Shown here: positions 42,101-44,540 of the stretch, piece after piece
How positions within the stretch are numbered: position 1 is the first letter of the stretch
Layout: each line of letters opens with the position of its first letter
NCBI GenBank assembly: GCA_947646655.1
Contig: CANSHI010000001.1
Coordinates: 125,570 to 189,569 of the forward strand
DNA: 64,000 bases
Source: an uncultured bacterium
Lineage (GTDB): Bacteria; Bacillota_I; Bacilli_A; RF39; UBA660
Direction of reading: 5' to 3'
The notes under the pieces: model-generated
What the model saw: only the letters and a program-made list of their open reading frames with translations
What the model was told of the DNA's origin: nothing
Database searches by the model: none
Position numbers and translations under genes: made by a program

Positions 42101-42160
42101 TGAAAAATCCCCCTTACACATCTTTTTTGGGAGATTTTGTCTTATTTTATTCAAAAAAGC

Positions 42161-43714
42161 TTAAGGGATTTCATTTGGTGAGCGATAAGGATTATTTATA
42201 GTACCGTCTCCGATTAAAGTATTCACATGTTCAGGAGTTAAAGATATGACTGGTGCTACACCGTGGCTTCTATCAGTATAGTTGTAATTAAGGTACCCAT
42301 CAATAATCACGTTATATATGATACTAGCATTGTCATAATGACATGGTGAAAGTGACCAATATATTGGCCCTTTATGAAGATAATATTTAGAATTTAATGT
42401 ATTATATTTTCCGCTTCCTGCTGTAACTATTTCGTCAGCTGTAATCAGTCCTATCTTTTCATTTAAAGTTCCATTTCCTTTTTCTATATCATTTACTGTA
42501 AAAGCATCATTTTTGTTTGGACATATAAAGCTTGGCTTAAGTTCACTAGTTTTCCATGGTCCTACTCTTACTGATGCTCCATATGCTGTAGCATTTTTTC
42601 CATAGCCTAAACCTGTATCACTATTTAATCCAGTCGCATCTTTTCCTGGTGTGCTTCTATCATTGCAAAATATGCTGTCTGCAACAAATTCGTCTAATCC
42701 TTTATTTTTGATATTTATTTTATACCATTCTTCTAACTTTATCTTTATTGTTGAACTTTCTGTATTGGTTTGTGCTTCTTCTTTACTTGTGCTTGGGTTA
42801 GTACCATTCGGTCCATACATATATCCTATATATTTCGTGTCGTTTAGTTTTTCATTGAATGCTGATTCAAACGCGATTCTATTCATGTCATTTGTTTCGT
42901 TCGCATGAGCTTGTGTTCCATCATATATTATTCTCAAACTTCCGTCTCCATTGATCCTTATGATCCTCCAATAGAACTCTGCAAACTTTACATAGTTATC
43001 TTCTGTTGCTCCTCTATAATAGTAACTCGTTCCATAGTCATCGGCCATTGCATATAATCCATCAGCTGTCTCATCAGAAGTGGCCGCTTCTGCAAAATTG
43101 GGCTGCCCTTCTTTTGCTGTTAAATTTAATTTAGATAAGGTTTCTTTAGAGGTAAAAATTTTTGTTCCTTCTTCTAATTTGAAATGTGTTGAAAATATTG
43201 CATTTAAATCTGCTGTTTGATCTGTTTCTTCTAAATAATTTAAAGTAATTGTCAATTTATAATAATATTTTGTTTCTGAAGGGATAACTAGACCGTCTGC
43301 TAAAACTTCTGTACTTGAGTTTTCACTTTTTGGTACATTTTTATTTGTAATTAGTTCTTGATAAACTCCGTTTTCTTCATCTGAATAACTTAAAGTATAT
43401 GTTAAAGAACTTTCTAGATAAGTATTTACTAAATCTTCGAAGCTTATTTTAGCAATAGCTTCCAAGCTCCCTGTATTTTCTACTGTAAAAGTTTTTTCTA
43501 TACTTGAACCAAACTCTAGTGATTCAGTTATACCTTGATTGCCATCACTAAAAGTAAGCTCAAACGTTCCAGTCTCTATAGTTACTTCTTGATTTTTATT
43601 ATTGCCTATATTACTTATGAAATATGCGTATGAACTTAGGAAGCCTACTATATTTAAAGTACAAACTGTTAGTCCAATTATTAATCCTTTTTTAATACTC
43701 TTATTTTTTTCCAT
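42161..43714 (-). CDS. Secreted TasA-family-like protein, paralogue 3 (about 517 aa from MEKNKSIKK); the track ORF is artificially extended upstream through the promoter poly-G (TTG 'start' lies inside the -35 box)
   Basis: SSYAYFISNIGNNKNQEVTIETGTFELTFSDG; the C-terminal domain is shared with paralogues 1 and 2. SD gaaaggga. The stop codon lies only 58 nt upstream of the sigG ATG. Confidence 0.8.
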   Translation of the reverse strand: MEKNKSIKKGLIIGLTVCTLNIVGFLSSYAYFISNIGNNKNQEVTIETGTFELTFSDGNQGITESLEFGSSIEKTFTVENTGSLEAIAKISFEDLVNTYLESSLTYTLSYSDEENGVYQELITNKNVPKSENSSTEVLADGLVIPSETKYYYKLTITLNYLEETDQTADLNAIFSTHFKLEEGTKIFTSKETLSKLNLTAKEGQPNFAEAATSDETADGLYAMADDYGTSYYYRGATEDNYVKFAEFYWRIIRINGDGSLRIIYDGTQAHANETNDMNRIAFESAFNEKLNDTKYIGYMYGPNGTNPSTSKEEAQTNTESSTIKIKLEEWYKINIKNKGLDEFVADSIFCNDRSTPGKDATGLNSDTGLGYGKNATAYGASVRVGPWKTSELKPSFICPNKNDAFTVNDIEKGNGTLNEKIGLITADEIVTAGSGKYNTLNSKYYLHKGPIYWSLSPCHYDNASIIYNVIIDGYLNYNYTDRSHGVAPVISLTPEHVNTLIGDGTINNPYRSPNEIP

Positions 43715-43750
43715 ACTTAAAATTATCCCTTTCAGTTTTATCCTATATCC

Positions 43751-43783
43751 ATTATACCACCCCCCCCCCCGGAGGGTTGTCAA
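43751..43783 (-). promoter_or_regulatory. Sigma-A-type promoter with an 11-nt homopolymeric G (coding strand) / C (plus strand) tract inside a 21-nt -35/-10 spacer: cTTGACAaccctccGGGGGGGGGGGtggTATAAT
   Basis: Direct reading of 43751-43783. It is homologous to the paralogue-1 promoter at 2570-2600, where the tract is G5 and the spacer is 19 nt. An 11-nt G/C run is extremely atypical in a genome of about 28% GC. Confidence 0.6.
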
Positions 43784-43820
43784 GAATGAGTTTATAAATT
43801 ATTAGTTTTAAATCACTTTT

Positions 43821-44484
43821 TTATTTATTTCTGAAAGGATTTTCCATTGTACCATTTCCTATCAATGTATTAGTATACTCTGGAGTTAATGAAATTACGG
43901 GAACTATGCCATTTATAACGTCAACATTGATATAACTGAGATTACCGCTATTATCTATGAAAAATACTCCACAAGCATTATTATAGTAAAAATAAGGAGA
44001 AAATGATGAGTATGAAATTCCTTTATATAAATAATATTTTGGATTATGTGTGCTAAACTTTCCACTTCCTGCGGTTAATATCTCATCTACTGCTAATAGT
44101 CCTATCTTTTCATCTAAAGCTCCATTTCCTTTTTCTATATCATTTACTGTGAAAGCATCGTTCTTTTTGGAACATTTAAATTGTGGTTTTACTAAACTTA
44201 TATCATTATTCCATGCGTTAGTTCTTGAAGTTCCTCCAAATGCTGTTATATTTTTTCCATAGCCTAATCCTGTATCACTGCTTAATCCTGTCGCATCTTT
44301 TCCTGGTGTACTTCTATCATTACAAAATATGCTATCTGCAACATATTCGTCTAATCCTTTATTTTTGATATTTGTTTTATACCATTCTTCTAATCTTATT
44401 TTTATGGTTGAACTTTCTGTATTGGTTTGTGCTTCTTCTTTACTTGTGCTTGGGTTAGTACCATTTGGTCCTTACATATAACCG
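43821..44484 (-). pseudogene. Promoterless, start-less 3' fragment (about 220 codons) of a fifth TasA-like paralogue, encoding only the conserved C-terminal domain; in-frame TAA at its 5' boundary
   Basis: The minus-strand translation gives GYM*GPNGTNPSTSKEEAQTNTESSTIKIRLEEWYKTNIKNKGLDEYVADSIFCNDRSTPGKDATGLSSDTGLGYG…KNDAFTVNDIEKGNGALDEKIGLLAVDEILTAG…VPVISLTPEYTNTLIGNGTMENPFRNK*. Positions 44261-44460 are about 93% identical at the DNA level to 42601-42820. Homology stops abruptly at about 44484. Confidence 0.7.
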
Positions 44485-44508
44485 AAACTAAAATAAAATA
44501 TTGTCGAA

Positions 44509-44537
44509 TAAAAAAATCTCAAATAATTTTTGAGATT
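44509..44537 (-). terminator. Rho-independent terminator downstream of sigE
   Basis: The minus strand reads ATCTCAAA-aatta-TTTGAGAT followed by TTTTTTT. Confidence 0.6.
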
Positions 44538-44540
44538 CAC

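Follow-up and report, generated by a model that had tools for sequence, protein, structure and literature searches.

A probable lineage-specific insertion between sigE and sigG in an uncultured gut bacterium, with retention of a conserved sigG promoter-like unit and leader hairpin

The 64,000-nucleotide stretch of DNA analyzed here (the window; assembly GCA_947646655.1, contig CANSHI010000001.1, positions 125,570 to 189,569) comes from an uncultured bacterium of the RF39 lineage of Bacilli_A and carries the sporulation genes spoIIGA, sigE, and sigG on its minus strand. sigE and sigG are separated by 2.4 kb of DNA, which holds a complete gene for a secreted protein with a TasA-like domain and a truncated copy from the same gene family. 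We consider it likely that this arrangement arose by a lineage-specific, intergenic insertion into an ancestral spoIIGA-sigE-sigG cluster, and that sigG retained its own control unit. This reading is carried by the anatomy of the locus, by comparisons with relatives that speak for insertion and not loss, by the conservation of a promoter-like unit directly upstream of sigG, and by the covariation of the two arms of a hairpin in the sigG leader. From the hairpin we infer translational silencing of transcripts that begin further upstream, and sporulation control is probably unaffected by the insertion.

Results

Anatomy of the Split Cluster

The distance from the sigE stop codon to the sigG ATG (44540-42101) is 2,440 nt, exactly the gap that an earlier note on this DNA had described as a 2.4-kb insertion, and well outside the ∼50–150 nt that is typical for this pair. 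Read along the minus strand, the gap contains a terminator-like hairpin, a 5′-truncated copy of a family member, a promoter, and a full-length gene of 517 aa (Table 1); its only open reading frames (ORFs) of at least 50 aa are this paralogue, its fragment, and short antisense ORFs. Both junctions were reproduced at 99.5%–100% identity by independent assemblies from at least four samples (the sigE side in L087, L088, L091, L093, L094, and L096; the sigG side in L001, L005, and L006), so the arrangement is not a mis-assembly.

The flanking genes were identified by their family matches. NCBIfam spore_II_GA is the top match in that database for the spoIIGA product, under its cut-off, and the gene lies immediately upstream of sigE, with the stop and start codons overlapping at 45230 as in other spore-formers. 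The sigE product scores 303 bits with the SigE equivalog versus 257 with SigK, and the sigG product 328 bits with the SigG equivalog versus 237 with SigF; the respective cut-offs of 339 and 372 are not reached. Scores below the curated cut-offs, each still giving the best family by a wide margin, point to a divergent lineage.

The earlier note also held that sigE ends with its own terminator, which is plausible. The hairpin beyond the sigE stop, followed by a U7 run, folds at −10.2 kcal/mol (z −2.87; 1 of 200 shuffles was equally good), and it was missed by a generic consensus terminator scan that needs at least three G-C pairs, of which this stem has two. It is kept in a second haplotype of the species (see below), and analogous hairpins are found 3′ of sigE in two relatives with other cargo at this position, L009 and L016. 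Relatives with contiguous genes have no room for a terminator between sigE and sigG. The efficiency with which the hairpin would terminate transcription is predicted from its fold.

Contiguity of sigE and sigG in Relatives

For comparison, 80 loci were recruited with SigG from species-representative genomes, and spoIIGA, sigE, sigG, ylmC, and the paralogue family were located in them by tblastn. The genomes nearest to the window are metagenome-assembled genomes of uncultured gut “Bacilli,” “Erysipelotrichaceae,” or “Tenericutes.” The sigE-sigG gap is 50–70 nt in 10 species (L007, L008, L010, L011, L012, L015, L018, L019, L025, and L056), whose SigG proteins are 57%–86% identical to that of the window; it is 147 nt in L013, with 85 nt extra, and several Clostridia likewise have contiguous sigE and sigG. 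In a neighbor-joining tree of SigE and SigG, the window is sister to the contiguous L007 and L008, so contiguity is the ancestral state and the window has a lineage-specific insertion. The earlier note had asked whether relatives universally carry a gene at this position; they do not, and the 10 contiguous species include these two nearest sisters.

The slot between the two genes is also occupied in other relatives. It holds a 432-aa family member with a different N terminus in L009 and an unrelated 477-aa ORF in L016 (L016:5521-6954). L009, L016, and L013 cluster with the contiguous L012 in the same tree, which argues for at least two or three independent insertion events at the slot. In L053–L055 the slot contains ∼4 kb with two other ORFs, and one more clade has lost the proximity of the two genes altogether, e.g., L020, where a 360-aa ORF precedes sigG. 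Judged by eye only, the 477-aa ORF of L016 appears to be higher in G+C than its surroundings, and the 360-aa ORF of L020 resembles ribose-phosphate pyrophosphokinase. The recurrence at the slot probably reflects what selection tolerates, not targeted integration.

Two further observations concern the insertion site and its surroundings. The sequence TGAAT occurs at 44535-44539, 1 nt past the sigE stop, and again at 42149-42153, at the start of the TGAATAA box described below, forming a direct repeat that flanks the insert; the repeat may have arisen by chance or may represent a duplicated target site inside the ancestral −35 element. Family members also lie near sigG elsewhere: in L008, where sigE and sigG are contiguous, a full-length copy (L008:7958-9532) is found directly downstream of sigG, at the position of ylmC in the window, and there are copies within a few kb of sigG in L010, L021, L025, L036, L039, L046, and L053. 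The number of such copies is roughly what chance would give for a dense multi-copy family.

A Conserved Promoter-like Unit Directly Upstream of sigG

The 70-nt segments that precede sigG were aligned for 52 loci with SigG proteins of 57%–100% identity. A TGAATAA box, similar to a −35 element, and the CA of a −10-like element are nearly invariant and at fixed spacing in these loci, whatever lies upstream. The complete unit consists of TGAATAA, 17 nt, a CA-initiated, A/T-rich −10-like element, and the Shine-Dalgarno sequence, and takes up the last ∼55 nt ahead of the start codon. The −10-like element is CAATATA or CATTATA in most species and CAAAAAAG in the window. In contiguous relatives, the sigE stop is separated from the start of the unit by a few nt (3–6 nt where counted). 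The corresponding distance in the window, from the stop of the inserted paralogue, is 8 nt, and the unit lies entirely within the spacer between this stop and the sigG ATG. The spacer is short, as the earlier note had pointed out, and measures 60 nt (42160-42101) instead of the 58 nt given there.

The same boundary is seen when two strain haplotypes of the species are compared. The haplotypes share sigE, its terminator, and 64 nt after it, differ entirely between 44477 and 42158, and are 100% identical from 42157 (TTTTTGAATAA...) downstream, with identity collapsing upstream of 42157. The second haplotype lacks the fragment; its promoter has the form TTGCAA-N17-TATAAT and contains no G tract, and its paralogue is another allele, with ∼49% protein identity. 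Thus, the sigG promoter unit is 100% identical across the haplotypes, and the inserted genes are only loosely similar.

In B. subtilis, promoters recognized by σF and σG have a −35 element of GnATA type and a −10 element of CAnnnTA type at a spacing of 17–18 nt. The GAATA-N18-CAnnnTA form of the conserved unit agrees with this consensus, and a specificity of the σG/σF type is predicted. In the window, the −35 GAATA is an exact match, and together with CAAAAAAG 11 of 13 positions agree, a score that is equaled or exceeded ∼880 times on one strand of this AT-rich DNA. The case for a sigG promoter here is one of cross-species conservation, not of consensus match. From the geometry of the predicted promoter, the transcription start of sigG would fall a few nt 5′ of the Shine-Dalgarno sequence.

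A Leader Hairpin that Would Sequester the Ribosome-Binding Site

The 5′ arm of a hairpin in the sigG leader overlaps the −10 element, and its 3′ arm includes the Shine-Dalgarno sequence (Table 1). The leader has a folding energy of approximately −12 to −13 kcal/mol, and RNA that begins just upstream of the Shine-Dalgarno sequence is unstructured on folding. In folds of the individual sequences, at least four of the six Shine-Dalgarno bases are paired to an upstream arm in 42 of 51 distinct leaders, and the arms covary (CUCCC/GGGGG, UCAUCCC/GGGAUGA, UUCCUU/AAGGAA, and UCCUC/GAGGA). Native duplexes between the arm and the Shine-Dalgarno sequence have a mean energy of −11.4 kcal/mol versus −7.3 kcal/mol when arms are swapped among leaders, with none of 5,000 permutations as low and a z of −12.5 that is inflated, as swap and shuffle tests ignore sequence relatedness; the pattern spans several Shine-Dalgarno types. 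RNAalifold on a MAFFT alignment of the leaders gave no consensus structure; the position of the arms shifts from species to species. A precedent is known from B. subtilis, where a hairpin blocks the translation of transcripts that read through from PspoIIG and cannot form in transcripts from PsigG (PMC5942855). The hairpin in the window is likewise predicted to silence the translation of transcripts from upstream.

Several points weigh against a retained sigG control unit of this kind, in addition to the neglect of relatedness in the swap test. The loop of the hairpin measures 15 nt, and clear pairing is missing in 9 of the 51 leaders. The CAAAAAAG element of the window fits the σG-type consensus less well than do the CAATATA-type elements of distant relatives, and equally good consensus matches occur by chance, also inside the 3′ end of the paralogue. 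Furthermore, the start site, the sigma specificity, the strength of the terminator, and the translational block are all deduced from sequence and predicted folds.

The Inserted Gene and Its Family

Homologues of the 517-aa protein number more than 3,500 and occur in several copies per contig and at unrelated loci; the window itself holds three family copies and the fragment. The inserted copy has no match in Pfam and NCBIfam. The remaining family copies in the window reach 22.4 and 16.9 bits with Pfam PF12389 (Peptidase_M73), for which the gathering cut-off is 22.5, and many homologues carry a precomputed match to this family. Searching PDB sequences with a profile yielded nothing significant, and only the comparison of folds was informative. 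We predicted the structure with AlphaFold from 43 homologues (predicted local distance difference test score, pLDDT, 82); the best Foldseek match of the model in the PDB is the fiber of TasA, a relative of camelysin in the Peptidase_M73 family (8aur; E 1.7e-4), through its beta-sandwich, and the next is an archaeal TasA-like filament. The HExxH motif is absent from the protein. The GSYAYF-type motif near its N terminus resembles, we presume, the signal-peptide region of TasA. The modeled likeness to TasA holds only for the N-terminal ∼150 residues, and the C-terminal domain resembles a domain of a gut-bacterial immunoglobulin A (IgA) peptidase, probably its lectin-like N-terminal one. The label “TasA-like” in the earlier note therefore applies to the fold of the N-terminal part and not to the remainder, nor is it backed by a Pfam match for this copy.

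The earlier note further proposed a link between sporulation and this surface protein. As the family is thousands strong and multi-copy at unrelated loci, nothing ties the inserted gene specifically to sporulation; in addition, its promoter is σA-like and common to the paralogue at 968-2533, where a homologous promoter contains G5. Family members are often pseudogenized into two or three consecutive ORFs (e.g., L098:4183-5657 and L099:4325-5669). In these split pseudogenes one conserved Met (GYM/GWM) recurs as the start of the last ORF, and many database “proteins” of ∼217–225 aa arise in this way.

The promoter of the inserted copy contains a G11 tract between its hexamers, the sole tract of at least eight G in the window. 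Two other assemblies of low coverage (∼3.5–4×), L088 and L091, read the tract as G10 and G14, respectively, and sequencing error is possible in both. In 0.96 Mb of related loci, all eight tracts of at least eight G lie in or beside TTGACA...TATAAT-like pairs, and six of the eight cleanly between the hexamers; this suggests that poly-G spacer tracts are a lineage-wide style of phase-variable promoter. Such tracts are found at L021:5150, L039:3821, L042:11448, L046:11325, L047:9188, and L055:9872, in addition to 43760-43770 of the window, and several of them precede genes outside the paralogue family. An exact-match scan of Joint Genome Institute (JGI) metagenomes for the G-tract promoter gave no match. 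The spacers of 20, 21, and 24 nt are all above the optimal length, and an extended −10 (TGn) is present; given these long spacers, this copy may be mostly off.

Homopolymer tracts in phase-variable promoters are known from the poly-A tracts of the Mycoplasma hyorhinis vlp genes and from poly-G/C or TA tracts in Neisseria and Haemophilus. The G11 tract resembles these in lying between TTGACA and TATAAT, and the length read for it differs between assemblies. It differs in that the spacers of 20–24 nt are over-long, an extended −10 is present, and the length data come from low coverage, so that an effect on expression is uncertain.

Other Features of the Window

Directly downstream of sigG lies ylmC/ymxH, which we take to be the gene order of the B. 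subtilis region. Between trmD and spoIIGA, a conserved ORF of 126 aa (46044-46424) keeps its position in all close relatives (34%–50% identity); it has no match in Pfam or NCBIfam. A 44-nt, TTGACA-containing sequence occurs twice at 95% identity (20677-20720 and 39544-39587). One copy lies ∼560 nt upstream of an L21 leader (Rfam L21_leader, 38914-38983) and the rplU operon, and the other just 3′ of two minus-strand tRNA genes; the repeat is probably a common strong promoter.

Table 1. Features at and around the sigE-sigG Gap, in Order along the Minus Strand
Feature	Position	Strand	Description
spoIIGA	45230..46006	−	Pfam Peptidase_U4, E 3e-40; encodes the pro-sigma-E processing protease
sigE (229 aa)	44541..45230	−	top match NCBIfam SigE equivalog; directly after spoIIGA
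Intrinsic-terminator-like hairpin with U7	44510..44538	−	RNA fold; stem 44538-44529/44523-44514, U7 44516-44510
5′-truncated paralogue copy (pseudogene fragment)	43821..44483	−	without start codon, without promoter
Sigma-A-type promoter of inserted gene	43751..43783	−	TTGACA 43783-43778, 21-nt spacer with G11 43770-43760, TGgTATAAT 43759-43751
Full-length paralogue, 517 aa	42161..43714	−	signal peptide, TasA-like beta-sandwich (residues ∼30–185), ∼300-aa C-terminal domain
Predicted sigG forespore-type promoter	42122..42153	−	TGAATAA 42153-42147, 17 nt, CAAAAAAG 42129-42122
Predicted RBS-sequestering hairpin (RBS, ribosome-binding site)	42104..42138	−	5′ arm AAAAUCUCCC 42138-42129 overlaps the −10; pairs with GGGGGAUUUU 42113-42104 (Shine-Dalgarno)
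sigG (258 aa)	41324..42100	−	ATG at 42100; top match NCBIfam SigG equivalog
ylmC/ymxH	41001-41225	−	directly downstream of sigG; then lspA, rluD

Discussion

The events at this locus can be pictured as follows. About 2.38 kb of DNA would have landed in the few nt that separated the stop codon of sigE from the −35 box in front of sigG, the inserted block comprising a terminator, a 5′-truncated pseudogene copy, and a complete member of a hugely expanded, hypervariable secreted-protein family with a vegetative-type G11 promoter. sigG would have kept its whole control unit (TGAATAA, 17 nt, the −10-like element, and the Shine-Dalgarno sequence) in the 60-nt spacer. The upstream arm of the hairpin would be present only in RNA that starts further upstream, making such transcripts, once those from the spoIIG promoter and now those from the promoter of the paralogue, untranslatable. 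Transcripts from the sigG promoter would lack this arm, leaving their ribosome-binding site free. Together, the insulation by the hairpin and the new terminator after sigE may account for the tolerance of the slot toward inserted transcription units and for its repeated occupation in related species. As the promoter and leader of sigG appear to form a self-contained module, the regulatory consequences of the insertion are probably small.

Alternative Explanations

One alternative, which is compatible with an insertion, assigns a function to the truncated copy: it would be a silent donor cassette from which gene conversion varies the C-terminal, lectin-like domain of the full-length protein. 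Homology of the fragment to the full gene begins at GGTTATATGTAA; an in-frame TAA (44474-44472) is followed by 216 open codons, and the encoded protein is 69% identical to residues 301–511, the C-terminal half, of the full gene product. At the DNA level the identity to the full gene is a mosaic, 90%–95% over the first ∼240 nt, a segment that is 65%–83% identical to other paralogues, and then 50%–72%. This mosaic, the frame that stays open past a single stop, and the wholesale replacement of the locus between strains with conserved flanks are what a cassette would lead one to expect. On the other hand, there is a single fragment, in direct orientation, and it is absent from the second haplotype. 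A database search with the fragment turned up no full-length donor of nearly the same sequence (best 58%). The similar ∼217-aa database ORFs were considered as recurrent cassettes and set aside, as their contexts show them to be pieces of split pseudogenes. Partial gene conversion and the decay of an earlier occupant would account for the mosaic identity equally well, and overall we regard a donor cassette as rather unlikely.

A different proposal concerns the slot and not its content, namely that it is a recurrent “safe harbor” in this lineage of gut Bacilli, with the sigG leader evolved as an insulator against transcription from upstream, so that independently inserted, transcribed cargo is tolerated there, as in the window, L009, L016, and L013. 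To this we assign a small probability. In its strongest form, if true, residual read-through from the phase-variable promoter would tune σG and lead to heterogeneous sporulation propensity.

A functional coupling of the two genes, in which read-through from the G-tract promoter adds sigG mRNA and the on/off state of the surface protein modulates σG or sporulation, seems to us improbable. Both a terminator scan and reading of the sequence found no terminator-like element between the paralogue stop and sigG; the stops of the window's other paralogues are followed by terminators, and the length of the G tract differs between assemblies (G10, G11, and G14). Read-through RNA, as the earlier note had envisaged, is hence plausible, but a translated product is not expected, as the conserved hairpin should leave such transcripts untranslatable (for the B. 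subtilis precedent, see PMC5942855). Furthermore, the second haplotype has a promoter at the same place without a G tract, and spacers of 20–24 nt suggest a promoter that is weak or off. In B. subtilis, σG made out of place does harm (PMC5942855), so selection would disfavor linking the gene to a vegetative promoter. Given the conserved pairing of the hairpin with the ribosome-binding site, read-through from the G11-tract promoter is likely harmless.

According to the earlier note, a promoter close to sigG could only be located within the 3′ part of the TasA-like coding sequence, and a search for SigF/SigG-type elements was proposed there. Matches do exist in this region, for instance GAATA-18-CTATAAAT at 42224-42194. 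Such matches, however, occur at chance frequency, with the ∼880 of at least 11/13 per strand of the window noted above, and a consensus scan of the paralogue 3′ end was thus uninformative for locating a promoter. The 3′ coding end is also unconserved between the haplotypes, whereas the spacer is 100% conserved, and the TGAATAA/−10/Shine-Dalgarno unit, kept within ∼55 nt at 52 loci, fits in the spacer. A promoter inside the coding sequence is therefore very improbable. Finally, the idea of an ancestral arrangement with later loss in relatives, or of an assembly artifact, can appeal to the presence of a paralogue at the slot in both haplotypes, but it is scarcely credible given the contiguity in sister species, deeper Bacilli relatives, and Clostridia, and the recurrence of the junctions in assemblies from at least four samples.

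Relation to Known Systems

A lineage-specific insertion that spares the control unit of sigG leaves the locus similar to that of B. subtilis in several respects: the gene order spoIIGA-sigE...sigG-ylmC, a predicted sigG promoter directly upstream of the gene, and a hairpin that would hide the ribosome-binding site only in upstream-started transcripts (PMC5942855). The window differs in having 2.4 kb of unrelated DNA between sigE and sigG and a putative terminator of sigE's own, and its hairpin is 9–10 bp, compared to the 20+ bp reported in B. subtilis (PMC5942855). In the window, the 5′ arm also overlaps the −10, and a very short leader is predicted.

The skin element in sigK is an intervening element in a sporulation gene, and in the window, too, foreign DNA interrupts a sporulation sigma-factor locus. 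The insertion in the window is intergenic and not within a coding sequence. We considered a skin-like, excisable element and rejected it, as the insertion is intergenic, there is no room for a recombinase gene, and nothing suggests programmed excision.

Biological Implications

If this reading is correct, a tightly regulated developmental locus is able to take up foreign genes with vegetative transcription and yet keep its wiring. Together, the sigG promoter and the leader that guards against read-through would constitute a portable, self-contained module, which stays with sigG even where sigE is no longer nearby. The covariation of the hairpin arms provides a comparative case that the read-through hairpin principle of B. 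subtilis holds in a distant, uncultured lineage. For annotation, the locus is a caution that adjacency alone is no proof of co-regulation with sporulation. Separately from the split of the operon, the inserted family, with its TasA-like domain, an IgA-peptidase-like (probably lectin-type) C-terminal domain, and promoters that often contain G tracts, may merit study as a system of variable surface proteins or adhesins in gut Bacilli.

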